DNA of 64,000 nucleotides from an uncultured Gammaproteobacteria bacterium (GTDB lineage: Bacteria > Patescibacteriota > Patescibacteriia > Patescibacteriales > GWC2-42-12). Both the position numbers and the translations under genes were made by a program. Location of the stretch: contig CAYSKV010000001.1 in the NCBI GenBank assembly GCA_964431805.1, positions 61,698-125,697 of the forward strand, in the 5' to 3' direction. This document shows, in pieces, positions 8,199 to 64,000 of this stretch. Below the pieces are notes generated by a model, which did not search any database, had not been told where the DNA came from, and saw only the letters and a list, made by a program, of their open reading frames with translations. The first letter of the stretch is position 1. Each line of letters begins with the position of its first letter.

Positions 8199-9212
8199 AT
8201 GAGCAAAAGAGCAATTTTTGACAAAAAAAATGTTTTAGTAATCGGCGGCGCTGGTTTCGTCGGTTCGCATTTATGCGACCGGCTAATTGAAAATAGCAAA
8301 GTAATTTGCCTTGATAATTTTTCAACCGGCGACGAAAGAAATATTGATCATTTACTTTCTGATCCTAATTTTGAGTTTATAAAACATGATATGGTTGAGC
8401 CGATTAATTTAGAAGCCTTGCCGGAATTGCAAAAATTTAAAATAGAATTTCAGGGTATCCAAGAAATTTATAATTTAGCTTGCCCGACCTCGCCGAAAGA
8501 TTTTGAAAAAAATAAAATCGCAACGGTTTTAGCTTCTTCTTATGCCGTAAAAAATGCTTTGGATTTAGCGGTTCGTTACCAGGCAAAAATTATGCATTTT
8601 TCTTCTTCGGTAGTTTACGGCCCAAGATTAGACGGCCAAACAAAAATTAAGGAAAGCGAAATTGGTAAAGTTGATTTTCTTTCTGAGAGAAGTTGCTACG
8701 ACGAAGGCAAAAGATTTTCCGAAACTATGGTAGAAAATTATCGCCGCGTTTATAATCTTGACGCGAAAGTGGCTCGCTTATTTAGAATTTATGGACCGAG
8801 GCTAAAACTAAACGAAGGCAATTTAATTCCTGATTTTATAAATAGCGCTTTGGAAAATTCTGATTTAACTATTCTTGGCGACGAAAATTTTTCTAGTTCG
8901 CTTTGTTATGTCAGCGATTGTGTTGATGCTTGTTTAAAATTAATGGAAAGTTCAGCAAATGGGCCGTTTAATATTGGATCTGATGTTGATATGAATTTAA
9001 CAAAAATTTGCGAGATGATTATTAAAATTTTAGATTCAAAATCGGCTATAACATATGCGGACAAACATTTATTTATTAGTGAATTATGTTTGCCTGACAT
9101 AACTAGAGCTAAGGAAGAGCTGGGTTGGATGCCGATTGTTACTTTGGAAAATGGTTTGAAAAAGACAATTGATGATTTACGAGCGAGCAAAGGTTTAAAA
9201 ACGGTAGTATAG
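8199..9212 (+). CDS. UDP-glucuronate decarboxylase-like NAD-dependent epimerase/dehydratase
   Basis: Rossmann motif VIGGAGFVGSHLCDRL, LACPTSP, and the catalytic YDEGKR block typical of UXS-type SDR enzymes. Confidence 0.8.
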   Translation: MSKRAIFDKKNVLVIGGAGFVGSHLCDRLIENSKVICLDNFSTGDERNIDHLLSDPNFEFIKHDMVEPINLEALPELQKFKIEFQGIQEIYNLACPTSPKDFEKNKIATVLASSYAVKNALDLAVRYQAKIMHFSSSVVYGPRLDGQTKIKESEIGKVDFLSERSCYDEGKRFSETMVENYRRVYNLDAKVARLFRIYGPRLKLNEGNLIPDFINSALENSDLTILGDENFSSSLCYVSDCVDACLKLMESSANGPFNIGSDVDMNLTKICEMIIKILDSKSAITYADKHLFISELCLPDITRAKEELGWMPIVTLENGLKKTIDDLRASKGLKTVV

Positions 9213-9338
9213 CCTTTAAAAACCTTTTTAAAAAAGGTTTTTAATATTTTCCAAAATATAAGGTATCAAATAAAAATTTTAAAGCGAGCGAAGCTCTACG
9301 GCCATAAATTTTTTTATTTGATTATTATAAGTTAATTT
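9213..9338 (+). repeat. Two-hairpin intergenic module, copy B
   Basis: Hairpin 1: TAAAAACCTTTTT-AAA-AAAAAGGTTTTTA (an extra C:G pair). Hairpin 2: ~9263-9323 with loop AGCGAGCGAAGCTCTACGGCC. Confidence 0.9.
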
Positions 9339-10007
9339 ATGAAAATTTTTTGCGTCATTCCGGCGTTTAATGAAGAAAAAAATATAGCAACGGTTATAGA
9401 CCAGGTAAAACCCCTGGTTGATACGGTTGTAGTGGTGGACGATAGTTCAAGCGATCAAACGGCTAGTTCTTCGGCTAAAACCGGCGTGGTTTTACTTAAG
9501 CATATAATAAATCGCGGGCAGGGCGCAGCTTTAAGAACGGGTACCGAGTATTGTTTAAAAAATGACGCTGATATAGTCGTTCATTTTGACGCCGACGGCC
9601 AATTTTTAAGTAAGGATATAGAAAAAGTTGTCGCGCCAATTAAAAATGGCGAGGCGCAAGTTGTTTTCGGCTCGCGTTTTTTAGATAGCGCTCATAGTTC
9701 GGAAATGCCGATATTTAAGAAATATTTTATTATGCCTTTAGCTAAAGCGGTAAATAAAATATTTTTTAATATTAATTTAACCGATCCACAAAGCGGTTTT
9801 AGAGCGATGTCGAGCGAGGCGGCGCGTAAAATTAATTGGCGACAAGACCGGATGGCGCATTGCTCGGAAATAATGTTTGAAGTTAAAAAAAATAATTTTA
9901 AAGTTAAAGAAATACCTATAAGAGTTATTTACCATAGTTTCGGACAAAGTTTTTCTGGCGGGTTAAAAATTTTAAAAGAATTATTTATTGCCATGCTGGT
10001 TAATTAA
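9339..10007 (+). CDS. Glycosyltransferase family 2 (polyprenol-phosphate sugar transferase-like)
   Basis: VIPAFNEEKNI, VVVDDSSSD, HFDADGQ (DxD) motifs; 222 aa. Confidence 0.85.
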   Translation: MKIFCVIPAFNEEKNIATVIDQVKPLVDTVVVVDDSSSDQTASSSAKTGVVLLKHIINRGQGAALRTGTEYCLKNDADIVVHFDADGQFLSKDIEKVVAPIKNGEAQVVFGSRFLDSAHSSEMPIFKKYFIMPLAKAVNKIFFNINLTDPQSGFRAMSSEAARKINWRQDRMAHCSEIMFEVKKNNFKVKEIPIRVIYHSFGQSFSGGLKILKELFIAMLVN

Positions 10008-10024
10008 AATATTATATTAACAAT

Positions 10025-10351
10025 ATGTTACAACAAACAATCGCTTTAATTATTATCGCTTTTATACTCGCTCGGCTTTTTCGGCAAAAGCAAAAGAATT
10101 ATATTAGCATGAATGAATTTTTATTTTGGCTTATTTTTTGGATTTTAGCCGCATGTCTAATAATTTCTTTAAAATTTATTGATGAATTAGTAGCCGGACT
10201 CGGTTTTAGCGGTTCAGGTATTGAAGTTTTACTATATTTAAGCGTAGCTATATTATTTTATTTTGTTTTTCGTTTAAGGTTAAAATTAGAAAAAATTGAA
10301 AAAGATATTACTAAAGTTGTGCAAAATATAGCTGTAAAAAATGGTAAATAA
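10025..10351 (+). CDS. Small membrane protein, DUF2304-like
   Basis: 108 aa with 3 predicted hydrophobic helices, immediately after a GT2 gene, which is the usual DUF2304 context. Family call is from memory. Confidence 0.55.
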   Translation: MLQQTIALIIIAFILARLFRQKQKNYISMNEFLFWLIFWILAACLIISLKFIDELVAGLGFSGSGIEVLLYLSVAILFYFVFRLRLKLEKIEKDITKVVQNIAVKNGK

Positions 10352-10485
10352 ACCTTTAAAAACTTTTTTAGAAAAAGTTTTCCCCTAAAGGGATAAATAA
10401 TATTTTCAAAAATATAAGGTATTAAGTAAAAATTTCATAGCGAGCAAAGCTCTACGGCTATAAAATTTTTACTTAATTATGATAA
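10352..10485 (+). repeat. Two-hairpin intergenic module, copy C (with extra CCCT-AA-AGGG mini-hairpin)
   Basis: Hairpin 1 as in copy A. Hairpin 2 at ~10419-10478 has an altered but still complementary stem (TTAAGTAAAAATTT / AAATTTTTACTTAA) and loop AGCGAGCAAAGCTCTACGGCT. Confidence 0.9.
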
Positions 10486-10494
10486 TTGATTATT

Positions 10495-11661
10495 ATGAAA
10501 ATTGCTCAAATAGTCTGTACTTTTCCGCCATACCGAGGCGGTATTGGTAATAGCGTTTATAATATTTCGGAAAGCTTGGCTGATTCAGGCCATGATGTAA
10601 CAGTTTTTACTCCAAATTATAATTATAAAATTGAAGAAGAGTTTAATTTACATGAAGGCAAATTTAAAGTTGAGCGCCTAAAGCCATTATTTAAATATGG
10701 CAATGCCGCTTTTATACCCCAGCTTTTATGGAAATTAAAAAACTTTGATATTATTCATTTGCATTACCCATTTTATGGTGCGCTTCAACCAGTGCTATTA
10801 AGAAAATTATTACTGGGGCGTAAAATGAGATTAATTTTGCATTATCATATGGATTCGAGGGCCGCTGGATTTAGGGGTGCTGTTTTTTATTTATATAATA
10901 TTTTAGTTTTACCAATTTTAGTTAGAGCGGCTACGATTATTACTTGCGCTTCGCTTGATTATGTAAAACATTCTGACTTAAGAGAATATTATTTAACTAA
11001 ACCGAAAAAATTTAGGCAAATATCATTTGGAGTAAACCTTGAACAATTTGTTACTTATCATGATGATTTAAATAAAAAACGAGAAAATAAAATTATTTTA
11101 TTTGTTGGCGCTTTAGATAAAGCCCATTATTTTAAAGGTTTAGAAAATTTACTTGAAGCTTTAGCTATAATTATTAAAGACCAGAAATTAAATGCGACTA
11201 TTTTAAAAGTGGTTGGACGGGGAAATTTATTATCTTATTATCAAAATTGCGTACTTAAATTAGGCTTAGGAAAAAATGTTAAATTTTATGAGCATGTTGA
11301 TGATAGCAAATTAGTTGATTTTTATAATTATTCTGATTGTTTAGTTTTACCGTCAATAAATAAAGGCGAAGCTTTTGGCTTAGTTTTACTTGAAGCTATG
11401 GCTTGCTCAAGGCCAGTTATAACTTCAAATTTGCCTGGCGTTAGAAGCGTTTTTAAAAGCGGCAGAGAAGGTTTGTTGGTTAAACCAAACGATATTAATG
11501 ATTTAGCCAATAAAATAAAAACTATTTTAAATGATAAAAAATTAGCCGAAAAAATGGGGTTAGCCGGCAGGGCGCTTGTAGAAAAAAAATATACTTGGTT
11601 TAAAGTTAGTAAAAGATTAGAATTTATTTATCATTATGTTAAATACACTTTTAAGCCATAA
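10495..11661 (+). CDS. Glycosyltransferase family 1
   Basis: GEAFGLVLLEAMACSRPVITSN E-x7-E region. ATG 10495 is preferred to TTG 10486. Confidence 0.85.
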   Translation: MKIAQIVCTFPPYRGGIGNSVYNISESLADSGHDVTVFTPNYNYKIEEEFNLHEGKFKVERLKPLFKYGNAAFIPQLLWKLKNFDIIHLHYPFYGALQPVLLRKLLLGRKMRLILHYHMDSRAAGFRGAVFYLYNILVLPILVRAATIITCASLDYVKHSDLREYYLTKPKKFRQISFGVNLEQFVTYHDDLNKKRENKIILFVGALDKAHYFKGLENLLEALAIIIKDQKLNATILKVVGRGNLLSYYQNCVLKLGLGKNVKFYEHVDDSKLVDFYNYSDCLVLPSINKGEAFGLVLLEAMACSRPVITSNLPGVRSVFKSGREGLLVKPNDINDLANKIKTILNDKKLAEKMGLAGRALVEKKYTWFKVSKRLEFIYHYVKYTFKP

Positions 11662-12819
11662 ATGATTATGAAAATTTGTTTAATAAATAACTTATATAAA
11701 CCATTTAACCGAGGCGGCGCGGAAAAGATAACCGAAACCATAGCGAACGGCTTAATAAAAGCCGGGTATGAAGTTTTTATAATTACTACTAAACCATGTG
11801 GTAAAAAATTGCCGACCACGAATTCTGGGCTAAAAATTTATTTTTTAGATTCTTGTTATTACAATTTAAATAAACTACCTAAATTTTTTAGATTTTTTTG
11901 GCAAATTTGGAACATGTTTAATTTTATAAATTATTTTAAAATAAAAAATATTTTACAAAAAGAAAAATGCCAGGCAGTTATTACTAATAATTTAATGGGC
12001 CTAGGATTTTTAACGTCATTAGCGATTAAAAATTTAAAAATTAGACATTTACATATTACGCATGACATTCAATTAATTCATCCGTCTGGTTTAATGTATT
12101 ACAGCGAGGAGGGGATAATAGAAAGTTTTTTTGCTAAAATTTATTCTGGTTTTTGCCGTCGTCTATTTAATTCGCCATCAGCAGTTATCTTTCCATCAAA
12201 TTGGTTAAAAGATTTATATATAGAAAGAAATTTTTTCGCTAAGTCAAAGATTAATATTTTGCCTAACCCAGTTGAAGATACGCCGGAGCAGGCGAGAGAA
12301 CAATCAGATAGTTTTAAATTTTTATTTTTAGGGCAAATTGAAAAACATAAAGGCATATTTTTATTAATAGACGCTTTTAATAAAATTAAAGATAAATATC
12401 CGGACGTTAAATTAATTATAGTTGGCGATGGTTCTAAAATTAAGCAGGCGCAAGAAAAAGCGGCAAGCAATAATAATATTAATTTTTTAGGCTGGCCGGG
12501 CGATGAAATAGCTAATAAATTGCTATTTTTAGCTAACTGCCTAATTTACCCCTCGTTAGTGTACGAGAACTGTCCTAACGCCATTCAGAGGGCTATAACG
12601 GCTAATTTACCGGTCTTAGCCAGCGATTTAGGAGGTATTCCTGAGTTATTAAATAAAAACGCCGGCATATTATTTAAGCCAGCGAATGTTAATGATTTAG
12701 CTGAAAAAATGGAGTGGATGATTAAAAATAAAAATAATTTACAAATTTCTAACCAAATTAATTTCAAAATTGAAATTTATATAAAAGAATTAGAAAAATT
12801 TATTTCCTCTCATATTTAA
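11662..12819 (+). CDS. Glycosyltransferase family 1
   Basis: GT-B layout with N-terminal GGAEK and C-terminal ENCPNAIQRAITANLPVLASD. Confidence 0.8.
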   Translation: MIMKICLINNLYKPFNRGGAEKITETIANGLIKAGYEVFIITTKPCGKKLPTTNSGLKIYFLDSCYYNLNKLPKFFRFFWQIWNMFNFINYFKIKNILQKEKCQAVITNNLMGLGFLTSLAIKNLKIRHLHITHDIQLIHPSGLMYYSEEGIIESFFAKIYSGFCRRLFNSPSAVIFPSNWLKDLYIERNFFAKSKINILPNPVEDTPEQAREQSDSFKFLFLGQIEKHKGIFLLIDAFNKIKDKYPDVKLIIVGDGSKIKQAQEKAASNNNINFLGWPGDEIANKLLFLANCLIYPSLVYENCPNAIQRAITANLPVLASDLGGIPELLNKNAGILFKPANVNDLAEKMEWMIKNKNNLQISNQINFKIEIYIKELEKFISSHI

Positions 12820-58308: not shown

Positions 58309-59550
58309 TTATTTTTTAATTATTTCGTTAAATTTTTCTATAAATATTTTAGTCGCCGGCCGGCGGACAGGATGCACTGATTCAACTAATTTTTCCGCAT
58401 TAACCCAACGCCAAGCGCTATGTTCGTAAGAATTAATTTTAATATCATTGTCAGAACCTAAAAATTCAGCAATAAATAAACCCTGTTTTTGCCCTTTATA
58501 ACCCAAGGCCTTTTTAGATAAAACACCAAATTTTGATAATTTATCGCCAAATTCATAAATATGCAATTTGGAGAAAATTGCAATCGGTTTAAATTTATTA
58601 TTATTCAATTCTTCACTTAATTCGCGCTGCCCGGCTTTCATTAAATCCTCTCCATCCGTACCGCCTTGAGGCAATTGCCAGTGGCCAGGTTGATGAGACC
58701 TTTCAACAATTAGTATTTTATATTCGCCGGTTGCCTGATCTTTTTTATAAAGCAAGCAAACTACGTTAGGGCGATAACAGAATGGCAAAATAAATCGCCA
58801 AACTAAAAATTTATAAGGAAAAACGATAACCGCATGATAAATTCTTTTCCAACGGTTTAATCGATCAGCTTTATTCTTGCCTTTATGAAAAATTAAACGC
58901 CACAACCATTCTAGGCCGATCACTCTAAATATTTTTGGCGCTCGATTAATTCGACCGGTTAAAAAATCAAAGGATCCGCCAATACCCATACCGATTTTTA
59001 CTGACGGCATTTTAGCTAAATTATGAAAAATAAATTTTTCTTGATAAGGCGCGCCTAAGGTGCAAAAAATTATTTCTGGCTGAAATTCTTTAATCTTTAA
59101 TAATTTTTCTTCTAATAAAGATACTTGCCTTTCAATATCAATTGTTAAAATTTGCAAATTAGGATATTTATCATTTAAGGCTTTATTTATATCTTTAGCG
59201 CTTGATAATCCGCTTTGCCAATTTAAAATAGCTATTCGCCTATTTCCGGATTCAGCTATTTTTAGAACATCTTTTATAAAATCAGCGCCGGTGATTCTCG
59301 AAAAATTTACGCCCATTAGCCAAGCCGATATTTTTAAACCCACGCCGTCAGGTAAAGACAAATCAGCTTTATTTAATAAACAAAAAAATTCTTCGTCTGG
59401 CTTAATAGCTGCTAAAATAATTTCCGGGTTAGGCGTAACTACAAAATGCTGTTTGCCATCAACTAAAAAATCCTGGATTTTATCCAGAGTTTGTTTTTTA
59501 GTAAAAGTATCAACATTAATTCCTAATATATTTATTTTTTTGTTTGTCAT
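58309..59550 (-). CDS. WecG/TagA/CpsF (GT26) glycosyltransferase fused to a C-terminal Nudix hydrolase domain
   Basis: N-terminal ILGINVDTFT..VVTPNPEIIL..LPDGVGL..GAPYQEKF. C-terminal Nudix box GGTDGEDLMKAGQRELSEEL. Confidence 0.8.
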   Translation of the reverse strand: MTNKKINILGINVDTFTKKQTLDKIQDFLVDGKQHFVVTPNPEIILAAIKPDEEFFCLLNKADLSLPDGVGLKISAWLMGVNFSRITGADFIKDVLKIAESGNRRIAILNWQSGLSSAKDINKALNDKYPNLQILTIDIERQVSLLEEKLLKIKEFQPEIIFCTLGAPYQEKFIFHNLAKMPSVKIGMGIGGSFDFLTGRINRAPKIFRVIGLEWLWRLIFHKGKNKADRLNRWKRIYHAVIVFPYKFLVWRFILPFCYRPNVVCLLYKKDQATGEYKILIVERSHQPGHWQLPQGGTDGEDLMKAGQRELSEELNNNKFKPIAIFSKLHIYEFGDKLSKFGVLSKKALGYKGQKQGLFIAEFLGSDNDIKINSYEHSAWRWVNAEKLVESVHPVRRPATKIFIEKFNEIIKK

Positions 59551-59648: not shown

Positions 59649-60509
59649 TTATTCGGTGGAAGTACTCTCGCCCGCCCCATCCCCCGCTGTAGCCTCTTGA
59701 TTGGTTGTGTCTGGCAATTCAATTATATCAACACTGGTTGGTTCGGTGATGGTTGGAGTTTCTGGGGTGGCTGGAGTTTCTGGTTCGGTGATGGTTGGTT
59801 CTGGTTCGGTTTGGGTTGTAGGATTAGGGGTTTCGGTTGTCTCGGTTGAAGTTGAGGTTTCGAATATCTCTGGATGGGTAGCTACATAATCATTATAGAT
59901 TTGGGTTAAATTGTCTACCCCGTTAGTTGTTGATGGATTAGTTGTGGTTTCCGGTAGGTTAAAATTATCTGGTGTGGGAAGTTCTTTTTTTACTACTGGT
60001 TCATAGCCGGGAAAAACCGTGGAAGCTAAGTCTAGAGTTAAACCGACTAAACCGCTGTATTCAGTAACTTCAACTCTGGTGGTTTGACCTTGGGCTTGAG
60101 CTAATTTTTGTTCTTCGGTTAGTTCTCTGATTCTAGCTTCATGATGTTTGACTAGAAATTTAGCCATATATTCGCCAATGTCTTGTTTGATCCTTTTACT
60201 GACTTTCTGGGTGTTTTGGTTTAATTGATATTGCCAGGCATTATCAATGATTACAATATCTAGATAGCTATAGGTGACATAATAGTATTTTTCGTCTTGT
60301 TCAATAGTTTCAATTTTAAAATCCATGTTGAAGGTAGCTAAATCAACTGAGAGTAGCAGTGTATTATCTATACCCTCTATACTAGTTTGTTTCTGGCCGA
60401 TATTTTCCGGACCGGCGGCTAATGCTCCCCCGCCCACGACAAGAATAACCGCCAAAATAATTACAGCCGCATTATTATATTTTACAAAATTAATTATTTT
60501 TTGAAACAT
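59649..60509 (-). CDS. Membrane-anchored hypothetical protein with Thr/Pro/Glu-rich C-terminal tail
   Basis: N-terminal TM (AAVIILAVILVVGGGALAA). The tail TETPNPTTQTEPEPTITEPETPATPETPTITEP is encoded by short tandem DNA repeats at ~59740-59830. Confidence 0.75.
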   Translation of the reverse strand: MFQKIINFVKYNNAAVIILAVILVVGGGALAAGPENIGQKQTSIEGIDNTLLLSVDLATFNMDFKIETIEQDEKYYYVTYSYLDIVIIDNAWQYQLNQNTQKVSKRIKQDIGEYMAKFLVKHHEARIRELTEEQKLAQAQGQTTRVEVTEYSGLVGLTLDLASTVFPGYEPVVKKELPTPDNFNLPETTTNPSTTNGVDNLTQIYNDYVATHPEIFETSTSTETTETPNPTTQTEPEPTITEPETPATPETPTITEPTSVDIIELPDTTNQEATAGDGAGESTSTE

Positions 60510-60515
60510 AGGTTT

Positions 60516-60548
60516 AGTTCAAAGTTAAAAGTATAAAGTTATAAAGTT
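60516..60548. repeat. Left arm of an imperfect ~33-bp inverted repeat flanking the four-helix-bundle gene
   Basis: AGTTCAAAGTTAAAAGTATAAAGTTATAAAGTT compared with the reverse complement of 60884-60920, AGTTGAAAGTTAAAAAGTTCATAAAGTTGAAAGTTAT. Built from AAAGTT units. Confidence 0.6.
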
Positions 60549-60883
60549 TTTATTAACCCAGAAATCAATCTTGAAATTTCTACCGTTAAATTATAATCTA
60601 TTTTAAAATTGTCTTCCGAAATATATTTTAATTTAACTGCTAAATATAATATTGATCTTACTTCCCCGCACGAACCTTTAGCGATATAAAGAAAATTTAC
60701 AAATTCTTTATTAGTTCTTCTTTCAAACCCTTCAGCAATATTATTCATTATAGAAACAGTAGCTCTTTGAATTTGATCTCTAAAACCAAAATCTCTGCAA
60801 TCTTTAAATTCTTTATAAATATTTATTGTTAATTCTCCTGCCTTCTTCCAAGCTATTATATCTTCAAATTTTTCTATTTTCAT
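60539..60883 (-). CDS. Four-helix-bundle protein of the 23S rRNA-IVS / Avd family
   Basis: 114 aa. FEDIIAWKKAGELTINIY..FRDQIQRATVSIMNNIAEGFER..FLYIAKGSCGEVRS is the family signature as I remember it. Confidence 0.8.
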   Translation of the reverse strand: MKIEKFEDIIAWKKAGELTINIYKEFKDCRDFGFRDQIQRATVSIMNNIAEGFERRTNKEFVNFLYIAKGSCGEVRSILYLAVKLKYISEDNFKIDYNLTVEISRLISGLIKTL

Positions 60884-60920
60884 ATAACTTTCAACTTTAT
60901 GAACTTTTTAACTTTCAACT
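60884..60920. repeat. Right arm of the inverted repeat flanking the four-helix-bundle gene
   Basis: See 60516-60548. Confidence 0.6.
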
Positions 60921-60925
60921 ATTTA

Positions 60926-63900
60926 TTATTTCGCGCACCTAAAACCAATATTAGTTGATTGTTCGCTTGGCGAATGAGATAAATCAAGACCGTAAATTCC
61001 GGTCGAGCCGCGAACAAAAGCTTTTAAACCCGATGTTGAGCCAACATAAATTTTTCCTATATTATTATCTACGTCAGTTAAATAATAATCCGGCGCTATA
61101 TCTAAACCTTTATAATCGGATACATCGCTATATTCAAACCAATTATCTGCTAGCGGCGTTACCGGCAACCCAGCCACGGTTACATTTTTATTAGTCCACT
61201 CACCTACCTCACCCACTAAATTGTTAATTAAGTTATCATTGTTTAATTTGTAAGATATGGAAGTGGTGGCGAGTTGCATGCCAGCAATATTGGTATCGCT
61301 ATCATTGTCAGGATTTTGCAAAATATTTTCAGCGATAGTTAACCATTCATTTTCACCAATTAAGTGATAACCCGTGCCTAGAGTTTGGCAAGCGATTTGA
61401 GCTTCGCCCTGAGAGATATTAGTTTTGATTTGGTCTAATTCATCTTTCATTAAATCTGCTTGGACGCAGAAACCAGGCAAGGTGCCATATTTAGCTGAGC
61501 CAGGCACCCAGACAAAACCGTCTTCGCAATAACCCTCGAAAGCTCCGGCCACAACTTTGCCTTCAACGCCTAAATCAGCCATGGTTTCATCAACCGCTGA
61601 GTCTAGGGCGTTAGAGCAATAACCGCCGGCGCAGAGCATAATACGACCGTCAACTAACATTGAGCCTGCGACTTTAACTTCACCGCTTTGAGCTATATTC
61701 ATAATAGAGACGCCGTTAGCTTGAAAATCTGCGATATCGCCTGAACCTGATTGATTAACTATGAATGCGGTTTTAGTTGAGGAAGCGGTTATTTCGGTTA
61801 GTTCAACAATCTTAACTTCTGGCTCTTGGCCTGGTTCTGAGACTGAATCTTTACCGATTATGATGCTGCCGTTTTCATCAAACGACATTATATTCTCACC
61901 ATTCTGGTTTTGTAAAAATAGAGCTTGTGGAGTAATACCGCTGGCGGCTTCGGTAAAGCGGAAATTGTTGGCAAAAATTAAATCACCGACGTAGGAGTTA
62001 GTGGCGTGCAGAGTGCCTAAAACATCTAAATTACTGGCGATGGTTGAAGTACCGGTTCCGCCGACTTCGAGGAGGCCTGAGATATAGGCTGAATTATATT
62101 TATCGCCAGCGAGTAGATAGACCGGGGTGCTTGAACCAACCGTCAGAAGAGCTTGAGGAGAAGTTGTGCCGATGCCGACGTTGCCGCCTGCTTGAAAGGT
62201 GGTAACAACATCAGTAATATCAACATTATTATTATCATCCGCATTATCATTAAGAATATACATATCGCCTCGACCCCGAGTATTATCAGTTCGTTTAAAT
62301 GCAATTCCAGCCTTTGAATAATTAGCGCCTCCTCCCGTACCAAGATAACCCAACATTAAACCAGTCCATTGATTTTGCGTAATGTCTCCACCAATATGAG
62401 CCGCAAAAGAGTTGCCTGAAGTTGCCACAGTCAATTTATTTAATGGGGTCGTAATTCCGATGCCGACGTTAGTATTTTTTACTGTCAAAGTATCAGTAAA
62501 AGTGTTAGTCCCGGTTGGCGTAGCCAATGTTATTCTGGCTGATTGATAATTATTACTATCAAAAGTAGAATAGATGCGACCGCTATTATAAATTGTTCCT
62601 GGCCCGTTTGAAAGTTCACCCATAAAAACTATATCTTCTTGGGTAGATGCAGATCCTGATTTTTGCAAAGTTAAAAGGTTTTGCGCATTTGCCGTTCCAA
62701 TGCCTACATTACCATTTGCCAACACAGTCATTAAAGTTGAAGTTGATGTACCAGCCGTTGTTGAAGCTATAGTGAATAGAGGCGTGTTAACTGCTGTTGA
62801 TACAGAATTAGAAATAGATAACATAGAATAAGGCGAAGTCGTACCAACGCCCAATCTACCAGCTATAGCTGTATTAGGAATTGCCGAGTCATCAATAGTC
62901 AAAGCTGTACCCATTGTAGTTCTTAAATTTATTCCGGTCCAACCAAATAAATTTAAACCCGTCCCATTAGGACTGCTATTATTTATTTCTGCAAATGTCC
63001 CCATATCTATTTTATTGGCTGTAATAGTGCTTATAGATAATCCGCCTGTCATATGAACAGTGCCATCCCAAGTCATATACATAGATGCATTATTGCCAAA
63101 TGAATTGTCAAATCTAAAAATATCTTGACCGGCATTACCTGTTGGCGTGGTAACATAAAATTTAGCCGTAGGATTGGCAGCTCCAATTCCCACATTCCCA
63201 TTATTCGTTACCATTAAATATGTTGATGTCGCCACGCCGGCGGTTGAAGAAGCAATTATAAATAATGGAGTAGACCCGCCCAAAGTATTTTCTATTGATA
63301 ATTTTGCGTAAGGAGAAGAGGTGCCAATACCGACGTTGCCGTTAGTTAAAATAGAAATTCTTTCATTACCAGCGCCAGAAGCAGAGTCAAAGATGGATAA
63401 TCTTCCGTCATCAGAATTTTTGATAGACCAGGTTGAAGTGCCGATGTTTAGCGTACCGAACCAACCTTCGTTCCAACGATAAGTAGAAGTGCCGATGTTA
63501 TAGGTTAAATTAGCGCTTGGTAGAATATCTCCAGAAACTAATAATCCAGAACTAGTAATTGTTCCGGTAGCGGTTAGATTACCGGCAATATAGGCATCGC
63601 CGATTACAGATAGTTTAGTAAATGGTGAAGTTGTGCCGATGCCGACGTTGCCGCCTGCTTGAAAGGTGGTAACAACATCAGTAATATCAACATTATTATT
63701 ATCATCCGCATTATCATTAAGAATATACATATCGCCTCGACCCCGAGTATTATCAGTTCGTTTAAATGCAATTCCAGCCTTTGAATAATTAGCGCCTCCT
63801 CCCGTACCAAGATAACCCAACATTAAACCAGTCCATTGATTTTGCGTAATGTCTCCACCAATATGAGCCGCAAAAGAGTTGCCTGAAGTTGCCACAGTCA

Positions 63901-64000
63901 ATTTATTTAATGGGGTCGTAATTCCGATGCCGACGTTAGTATTTTTTACTGTCAAAGTATCAGTAAAAGTGTTAGTCCCGGTTGGCGTAGCCAATGTTAT
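60926..64000 (-). CDS. Giant repeat-rich surface protein (tail-fibre-like GNVGIGTxSP repeats) with C-terminal C-type-lectin/FGE-sulfatase-like domain; 5' end outside window
   Basis: The frame is open to the window edge, so the TTG start in the ORF track is an artefact. Recurrent NVGIGTTSPxxKLxV units. The C-terminal ~200 aa carry FVWVPG, GYHLIGENEW, VGEWTN and GFRCAK followed by the stop. Confidence 0.85.
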   Translation of the reverse strand: MTLATPTGTNTFTDTLTVKNTNVGIGITTPLNKLTVATSGNSFAAHIGGDITQNQWTGLMLGYLGTGGGANYSKAGIAFKRTDNTRGRGDMYILNDNADDNNNVDITDVVTTFQAGGNVGIGTTSPFTKLSVIGDAYIAGNLTATGTITSSGLLVSGDILPSANLTYNIGTSTYRWNEGWFGTLNIGTSTWSIKNSDDGRLSIFDSASGAGNERISILTNGNVGIGTSSPYAKLSIENTLGGSTPLFIIASSTAGVATSTYLMVTNNGNVGIGAANPTAKFYVTTPTGNAGQDIFRFDNSFGNNASMYMTWDGTVHMTGGLSISTITANKIDMGTFAEINNSSPNGTGLNLFGWTGINLRTTMGTALTIDDSAIPNTAIAGRLGVGTTSPYSMLSISNSVSTAVNTPLFTIASTTAGTSTSTLMTVLANGNVGIGTANAQNLLTLQKSGSASTQEDIVFMGELSNGPGTIYNSGRIYSTFDSNNYQSARITLATPTGTNTFTDTLTVKNTNVGIGITTPLNKLTVATSGNSFAAHIGGDITQNQWTGLMLGYLGTGGGANYSKAGIAFKRTDNTRGRGDMYILNDNADDNNNVDITDVVTTFQAGGNVGIGTTSPQALLTVGSSTPVYLLAGDKYNSAYISGLLEVGGTGTSTIASNLDVLGTLHATNSYVGDLIFANNFRFTEAASGITPQALFLQNQNGENIMSFDENGSIIIGKDSVSEPGQEPEVKIVELTEITASSTKTAFIVNQSGSGDIADFQANGVSIMNIAQSGEVKVAGSMLVDGRIMLCAGGYCSNALDSAVDETMADLGVEGKVVAGAFEGYCEDGFVWVPGSAKYGTLPGFCVQADLMKDELDQIKTNISQGEAQIACQTLGTGYHLIGENEWLTIAENILQNPDNDSDTNIAGMQLATTSISYKLNNDNLINNLVGEVGEWTNKNVTVAGLPVTPLADNWFEYSDVSDYKGLDIAPDYYLTDVDNNIGKIYVGSTSGLKAFVRGSTGIYGLDLSHSPSEQSTNIGFRCAK
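62160..62533. repeat. Perfect direct repeat, copy 1 (inside the giant gene)
   Basis: Identical base for base, as far as I compared, to 63627-64000. The offset of 1467 bp (489 codons) is in frame. Confidence 0.9.
63627..64000. repeat. Perfect direct repeat, copy 2 (truncated by the window edge)
   Basis: See 62160-62533. Identity continues to the last base of the window. Confidence 0.9.

Follow-up and report, generated by a model that had tools for sequence, protein, structure and literature searches.

The minus strand of the 64-kb window analysed here (the whole stretch of contig CAYSKV010000001.1 under study) carries a giant surface-protein gene whose product ends in a C-type-lectin fold, followed closely by the gene for a 114-aa four-helix-bundle protein. 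This order recalls the target and avd genes of a diversity-generating retroelement (DGR), and a first-pass annotation had read it as DGR-like. We conclude that the locus is probably not a DGR, but a fixed lectin-fold tip lying beside an unrelated four-helix-bundle cassette that resembles an intervening sequence (IVS). The target–avd-like layout is best read as a chance juxtaposition within a hot spot for accessory genes.

The descriptive basis of the first-pass annotation was sound. The giant gene ends as it had been described, in ...VRGSTGIYGLDLSHSPSEQSTNIGFRCAK followed by TAA; the last ~200 aa of its product do have the FGE-sulfatase / C-type-lectin fold; and the four-helix-bundle protein encoded behind it is a member of the PF05635 superfamily. 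The DGR reading itself stands in part. The lectin domain is one of a family whose distant members in the candidate phyla radiation (CPR) are true DGR targets, but the 114-aa protein does not classify as an Avd, and the segment equivalent to the variable region (VR) is both shortened and invariant. Three options had been left (a remote or orphan target, a decayed DGR, or coincidence), of which coincidence is the best supported; the lack of variability counts against a remote target.

DGR components and the Avd question

All absences reported for the window cover its 64 kb. No reverse transcriptase (RT) motif of the form [IL]GxxxSQ or YxDD was found by a six-frame regular-expression search of the window, and the gene downstream of the 114-aa open reading frame (ORF) is free of them, as had been noted. 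A hidden Markov model (HMM) constructed from 10 CPR DGR RTs recovers every RT in the true DGR loci described below; it gave no match at E ≤ 1 in the window or in the related loci L001–L048. The earlier observation that the window holds no second copy of the 3′ end of the giant gene was borne out by two approaches. A blastn search (word size 7) with the last 375 nt of the gene found no copy in the window that could serve as a template repeat (TR), and an adenine-tolerant pattern (C→M, G→R, T→W) matched only the VR-equivalent itself. The same pattern recovers the TR in 7–10 of 10 true DGR loci, depending on the segment used.

Is the 114-aa protein the Avd of a DGR, as had been proposed? By sequence it is a clear member of the TIGR02436 / Xcc0516 family, scoring 112.6 bits (cutoff 24) against TIGR02436 (four helix bundle protein) and matching Xcc0516 (2GSC) with E = 4e-12; the only other PDB chain found at E ≤ 1 is 2RLD. 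It scores 118.4 bits against PF05635 (E = 2e-34, cutoff 33.8). On the NCBIfam DivGenRetAVD equivalog NF033474, however, it reaches only 13.4 bits and fails the cutoff of 80. Five DGR-linked Avds, each beside a TR and an RT, score 83–131 bits on NF033474 and no more than 27 bits on TIGR02436, whereas four non-DGR neighbours score like the protein of the window on the two models. We therefore reject the assignment: the protein fails a model that every DGR-linked neighbour passes, and its gene lies in a cassette that some close relatives have and others lack.

Clustering of 35 four-helix-bundle ORFs resolves the same two classes, which we term class A (the DGR Avds) and class B (the non-DGR genes of TIGR02436 type). 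The 114-aa protein is 13–22% identical to class A in this small sample, and an HMM of class-A Avds gives it 22 bits, compared with 59–186 bits for the DGR-linked Avds. A weak ‘Avd’ match in PHROGs (22 bits) reads as similarity at the superfamily level. The isoelectric point was considered as a discriminator and set aside; at 8.9 for the 114-aa protein and a mean of 9.3 for class B and 9.8 for class A all are basic, so that the value is not decisive. Judged on these matches, the 114-aa protein belongs to the non-DGR TIGR02436/S23p branch. The Avd equivalog model cleanly separates the two PF05635 branches, and a PF05635 match beside the end of a lectin-fold gene is insufficient to call a DGR in CPR genomes.

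The lectin domain and its diversified relatives

The last ~200 aa of the giant protein score 11.4–12.3 bits against PF03781 (FGE-sulfatase), below the cutoff of 23.3, although two homologues of the domain carry a precomputed PF03781 match. The domain was modelled with AlphaFold using 29 homologues, with a mean pLDDT of 80.9; values are mostly 80–98 from about residue 56–61 on, apart from one 10-residue block at 68. A Foldseek comparison of the model with the PDB puts two DGR variable proteins first, TaqVP (E = 1.9e-5, probability 1.00) and Mtd; C-type lectins, the FGE-like domains of EgtB/OvoA, and TvpA come next. The resemblance to FGE-sulfatase lies only at the level of the fold. The window protein therefore shares with DGR targets a C-type-lectin fold placed at the C-terminus, and has homologues with a true VR at the equivalent position, where it is itself 7 aa shorter.

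We found 55 homologues of the lectin domain, nearly all in Patescibacteria metagenome bins. A number of public bins that contain a locus of this Patescibacteria type (L014, L015, L024, L026, L027 and others) are titled ‘uncultured Gammaproteobacteria’, which is probably a mislabelling of the records.

How do DGRs look where this domain is truly diversified? We fetched 80 genomic loci around homologues of the domain. The loci of the distant CPR homologues (roughly 26–45% identity) contain textbook DGRs, in which the last 115–146 nt of the gene form the VR, with the TR 0.5–1.8 kb downstream and an RT ORF bearing IGNLTSQLFAN...YMDD alongside. In these true DGR relatives a small four-helix-bundle gene lies directly behind the target. 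The TR was found by blastn in 10 relatives. The mismatches between VR and TR fall exclusively at adenines of the downstream copy in six of them (L063, L065, L066, L069, L070 and L073), and mostly at TR adenines in L059, L062, L068 and L074. These loci served as positive controls for the TR and RT searches. The same blastn search found no TR in the closer homologues (40-odd loci of 46–83% identity, L008–L048), nor in the window and L001–L007; flanking sequence of 10 kb was available for many of them. In distant CPR relatives, then, the family of the window's lectin domain is a genuine DGR target.

Two features of these loci are recorded here as observations in their own right. In L063, L066 and L068 short tandem repeats with units of the ATCTGNN type lie between the end of the VR and the start of avd, with no inverted copy downstream. 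In L049 a complete CPR DGR (8309–12290) is found directly behind a 2538-aa protein of the same giant type as that of the window. Its TR (10788–10980) matches a separate 345-aa lectin gene (VR 9156–9348) and not the giant gene, and a non-DGR four-helix-bundle gene (9428–9787), flanked by an 86-nt direct repeat, is placed between the VR and the true Avd.

In the alignment the close clade of the window reads RG-------xGGIYxLDL where the DGR-linked proteins read RGGxWxxxSxAGVFxLxL, so that a 7-aa deletion takes out part of the variable loop. What remains of the loop shows no sign of having been diversified. The exact 114-aa protein is encoded on four other metagenome contigs (L001–L004) from different samples. 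The five assemblies, which were drawn from at least four samples, are 100% identical over the final 465 nt of the giant gene, over the 114-aa gene and over ~300 nt at the start of the gene that follows. Single-nucleotide polymorphisms occur on either side of the identical stretch, and L002 is only 93.6% identical overall. The ~1.2-kb tract of identity between L002 and the window looks, from the sequence, like the product of recent recombination or gene conversion. In comparisons between species the last 34 aa, which constitute the VR-equivalent, match or exceed the remainder of the domain in conservation for 9 of 13 relatives (for example 85% against 70% identity in L012, and 76% against 62% in L016). 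In the true DGR pair L059/L064, by contrast, the VR is 75% identical and the rest 93%. The conservation of the VR-equivalent in the window is the opposite of DGR behaviour. A single lectin-domain family with both diversified and fixed lineages provides a natural comparison for studying the purpose of DGR diversification in CPR surface proteins.

The cassette, the spacer and the gene order

The four-helix-bundle ORF of the window is the core of an AT-rich cassette of ~415 bp, in which it is placed between inverted arrays of 7–9-nt repeats. The units of the 5′ arm run AGTTGAA AGTTAAAA AGTTCATAA AGTTGAA AGTTAT. The inverted arms were located at 60515–60548 and 60883–60923 (inverted pairs I3, I6 and I7), and their complementarity exceeds that of shuffled sequences (z = 4.2). 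In the predicted RNA fold the arms pair in both the minimum free energy and the centroid structures, enclosing the ORF, with z = −2.25 for the cassette as a whole. In orthologous cassettes the spelling of the units changes on both sides together, with ATAAAGTT accompanied by AACTTTAT in L016, and AGAAAGTT in L012. The tandem periodicity of the window’s own arms is not significant (z = 1.4 and −0.4) because the units vary between 7 and 9 nt, and it is clear only across the family, where the preferred period is 7 or 8 nt.

How general are such arms? Among non-DGR four-helix-bundle genes in CPR loci, 14 of 19 have an upstream flank that is complementary to the downstream flank with z > 3. Complementary flanks were found for only 3 of 16 DGR Avds, and to the eye these resemble hairpins of repeat type. 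An independent set of viral contigs (L208–L223), which includes GC-rich ones, shows the same arm pattern in 7 of 12 cases, with wholly different spellings of the repeat. The inverted-arm architecture is thus a property of the non-DGR four-helix-bundle family. Loci with arm-bracketed non-DGR genes include L011, L016, L017, L025, L041, L042, L056, L058 and L062. We found no published description of inverted repeat arrays flanking TIGR02436 genes in the literature searched, the coverage of which was limited, so that this is weak evidence of novelty. The architecture is seen in CPR genomes as well as in unrelated viral contigs, and if it is general it gives a concrete way of approaching what the S23p/IVS proteins do.

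The space between the giant gene and the conserved downstream partner that encodes the 286-aa protein has very different contents in different relatives. It is empty in L013, where 30 nt (1337–1367) separate the giant gene from the homologue of the 286-aa gene. A four-helix-bundle gene is present in the window, in L001–L004, L014, L016 and L012, and in frameshifted form in L007. In L008, otherwise the most syntenic relative, the spacer (1443–1904) contains a GIY-YIG gene with inverted repeats of its own, and only the upstream repeat array of the cassette is retained. The spacer of L009 (2869–4300) holds an AbiEii toxin–antitoxin pair, and that of L012 (1184–2422) toxin–antitoxin genes of nucleotidyltransferase type with a HEPN partner. 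In L011 (2752–6286) a PD-(D/E)XK/InsA-like gene, a four-helix-bundle gene and a nucleotidyltransferase-type toxin–antitoxin gene are found together. The spacers of L010 and L011 encode large Zn-ribbon proteins, of which the one in L011 gives the PD-(D/E)XK and InsA-like matches. Since its content varies in this way among relatives, the spacer is a hot spot for accessory genes.

The four-helix-bundle gene also differs from its neighbours in divergence and composition. The 114-aa protein is 98% identical to its counterpart in L014, compared with 83% and 71% for the proteins of the flanking genes. Its dS values lie between 0.21 and 0.67, while those of the flanking genes range from 0.87 to above 3, where they are saturated; the difference is 3–8 fold. 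With dN/dS of 0.03–0.09 the gene is under strong purifying selection. Its GC content of 24.6% is the lowest of the 56 ORFs of at least 100 aa in the window (mean 33.4%, sd 3.8), and the neighbouring genes have 40–41%. As with an IVS, sporadic presence is found together with signs of horizontal transfer, namely the low dS and the lowest GC.

The positions of the features are collected in Table 1. The product of the giant gene is at least 2308 aa long on contig L001, and its homologues in L005, L006, L023 and L049 have 2250–2540 aa. Within the window the gene contains a direct repeat of at least 300 nt, 100% identical, at 62157–62456 and 63624–63923 (spacing 1467 nt), by which the protein segment ATPTGTNTFTDTL...GNVGIGTTSP is present twice; this reflects a very recent internal duplication or else an artefact of assembly. 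Elsewhere, at 58309–59550, a single 413-aa ORF fuses a glycosyltransferase domain of WecG/TagA type to a NUDIX domain (PF03808 + PF00293). Neither Rfam families nor tRNAs (ARAGORN) were found in the window, and PADLOC returned no match.

Table 1. Coordinates of the locus in the window
Feature	Position	Strand	Remarks
Giant surface-protein gene, 3′ part, tail-fibre-like	60926..63994	−	runs off the end of the window; weak PHROG tail-fibre matches
C-type-lectin / FGE-sulfatase-fold C-terminal domain	60929..61540	−	about residues 56–259 of the 259-aa query; AlphaFold and Foldseek
VR-equivalent, last 34 aa (GLKAFVRGSTGIYGLDLSHSPSEQSTNIGFRCAK)	60929..61030	−	homologous to the VR of true DGR targets
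42-nt spacer between giant gene and 114-aa ORF	60884–60925	−	
Cassette 5′ arm	60884..60925	−	five AGTT-centred 7–9-nt units; occupies the entire 42-nt spacer
114-aa four-helix-bundle ORF, TIGR02436 / PF05635 (S23p, 23S-rRNA-IVS protein) branch by sequence	60539–60883	−	
29-nt spacer, 114-aa ORF to next start codon	60510..60538	−	
Cassette 3′ arm (ATAACTTTATACTTTTAACTTTGAACT)	60510..60538	−	reverse complement of the 5′ array; occupies the entire 29-nt spacer
286-aa protein gene, N-terminal hydrophobic segment and Thr/Pro-rich tail	59649–60509	−	no RT motifs
Tract 100% identical to strain contig L002, ~1.2 kb, centred on the cassette	60200..61392	.	flanks differ by 5–20%

Alternative explanations and known systems

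Taken together, the data suggest the following course. The giant protein ends in a ligand-binding domain of C-type-lectin fold, from a family that is diversified by DGRs in other CPR bacteria. The sub-clade of the window carries a fixed version of it, with a loop 7 residues shorter, conservative evolution, and no TR or RT in the flanks examined, and this would most likely act as an ordinary adhesin or receptor-binding tip. The spacer behind the giant gene collects small accessory genes, here a cassette of TIGR02436 type that may spread horizontally or through gene conversion. The role of its arms could be that of an RNA stem, cleaved by RNase III in the manner of an IVS, or that of terminal repeats at the level of the DNA.

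Several points weigh against parts of this account. The PF05635 proteins and Avd are homologous, so that a common activity is possible. Mismatches in the arms are G–U in 24 cases and A–C in 26, which lends no specific support to a role as an RNA stem; the counts are neutral, and terminal repeats at the level of the DNA are just as likely. In about four separate lineages (the clade of the window, L041, L042 and L049) a lectin-domain gene has a non-DGR four-helix-bundle gene directly on its 3′ side, which may be more than chance. The sequence seen amounts to 64 kb of the genome, and remote targets are within reach of a DGR (PMC5758913). When metagenome contigs were scanned with the adenine-tolerant pattern for a remote TR there were at least 120 matches, and those listed are all poly-A or nearly so (119 with at least 90% A and one with 88%), because every code of the pattern (M, R and W) includes A.

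A broader reading of the cassette can be offered tentatively, and we regard it as possible rather than probable. The non-DGR PF05635/TIGR02436 genes would be widespread, tiny autonomous cassettes, each consisting of an ORF for a ~115-aa four-helix-bundle protein that forms pentamers, bracketed by inverted arrays of 3–5 heptamers or octamers specific to the element, and moving or being exchanged between genomes. On this view the encoded protein might bind the arms as its cognate sites, the ORF-bearing IVSs of rRNA would be the special case of a cassette that landed in 23S rRNA, and the Avd of DGRs might be a domesticated relative.

The recurrent adjacency could instead be non-random without any DGR being involved. 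TIGR02436 cassettes might preferentially insert at, or persist beside, the 3′ ends of lectin/VR genes, where, for instance, a sequence or structure might be recognised. In the window clade, L041, L042 and L049 a class-B gene is indeed found no more than 200 nt beyond the 3′ end of a lectin-domain gene, in L049 between a true VR and its Avd, and Wu et al. reported ‘ribosomal protein genes’ within five DGRs of CPR genomes (PMC5758913). Yet the excess is weak, with a rough binomial P that we estimate at about 0.02–0.04, because the sampling of loci centred on lectin genes and mostly took in their downstream side. Moreover, the spacer in the window clade collects GIY-YIG, toxin–antitoxin and nuclease genes too, as would a general hot spot, and most class-B genes are found elsewhere. 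We consider such targeting unlikely.

That the locus is a DGR decayed in place, from which TR and RT were lost and in which the 114-aa gene is the surviving, diverged avd, strikes us as improbable. The order of target and four-helix-bundle gene is that of the true DGR relatives L062, L063, L066 and L068, and the lectin sub-clade could descend from a diversified ancestor. But the 114-aa protein clusters with non-DGR TIGR02436 genes that lie at unrelated positions, rather than with the DGR Avds from which it differs so widely. L013 has an empty spacer, and in L008, L009 and L011 other accessory genes occupy it, from which the ancestral state would be the target followed directly by the 286-aa gene; a dS far below that of the flanks and an atypical GC content indicate that the four-helix-bundle gene arrived later. 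Finally, the 42-nt and 29-nt spacers are made wholly of the arms, which leaves no room for remnants of a TR or RT.

The least probable alternative, and a very doubtful one, is that a complete DGR with TR and RT elsewhere in the genome diversifies the giant gene in trans with the 114-aa protein as Avd: the domain is of a true DGR target family, remote action is known, and L049 has a complete DGR right behind a giant protein of this type, but the VR-equivalent is identical in all five assemblies and conserved between species, its variable loop has lost 7 aa, the Avd models that accept every DGR-linked neighbour reject the 114-aa protein, the TR of L049 matches a different, small lectin gene, and an Avd is normally found beside the TR and RT and not beside a remote target.

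How does a fixed tip beside an IVS-like cassette compare with systems already described? The likeness to the target–avd–TR–RT order of a DGR lies in a target-like gene whose product has a C-type-lectin fold at its end, with a gene for a basic ~115-aa four-helix-bundle protein close behind it in the same orientation. Unlike a DGR, the window has no RT or TR, its accessory protein fails the Avd equivalog, and the VR-equivalent is shortened, invariant and conserved. The structure search places the variable proteins TaqVP, Mtd and TvpA near the top for the modelled domain, which has in common with the DGR-linked homologues the IGFRCAK end and the scaffold RG...G[IV][FY].L.L. The sequence identity to TaqVP, Mtd and TvpA is only 10–14%, however, and unlike them the domain of the window lacks 7 residues of the variable loop and bears no sign of diversification.

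The closest described object to the cassette is the ORF-bearing IVS of 23S rRNA, as found in Coxiella burnetii (with S23p) and in Leptospira. The S23p/IVS protein family was first described in such sequences in the early 1990s (cited in PMC4990558). The Coxiella IVS is 428 nt long and contains the S23p ORF, with terminal inverted repeats that form a stem cut by RNase III; its GC content is below that of the genome, and it is thought to have been acquired horizontally (PMC4990558). There are differences. No rRNA was found in the window by Rfam, and the cassette lies between two protein-coding genes rather than in helix 9, 25 or 45 of 23S rRNA. Its arms are arrays of 7–9-nt tandem units in place of a single, near-perfect stem of 28 bp; by analogy, processing by RNase III is a candidate role for them, for which the G–U and A–C comparison gives no RNA-specific signal. 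Yet the two elements are closely similar in size (~415 nt here) and carry an ORF of the same PF05635/S23p family, and the cassette shares with the 23S rRNA IVSs the terminal inverted repeats that enclose the ORF, a GC content below that of the host, a sporadic distribution and the signs of horizontal transfer.

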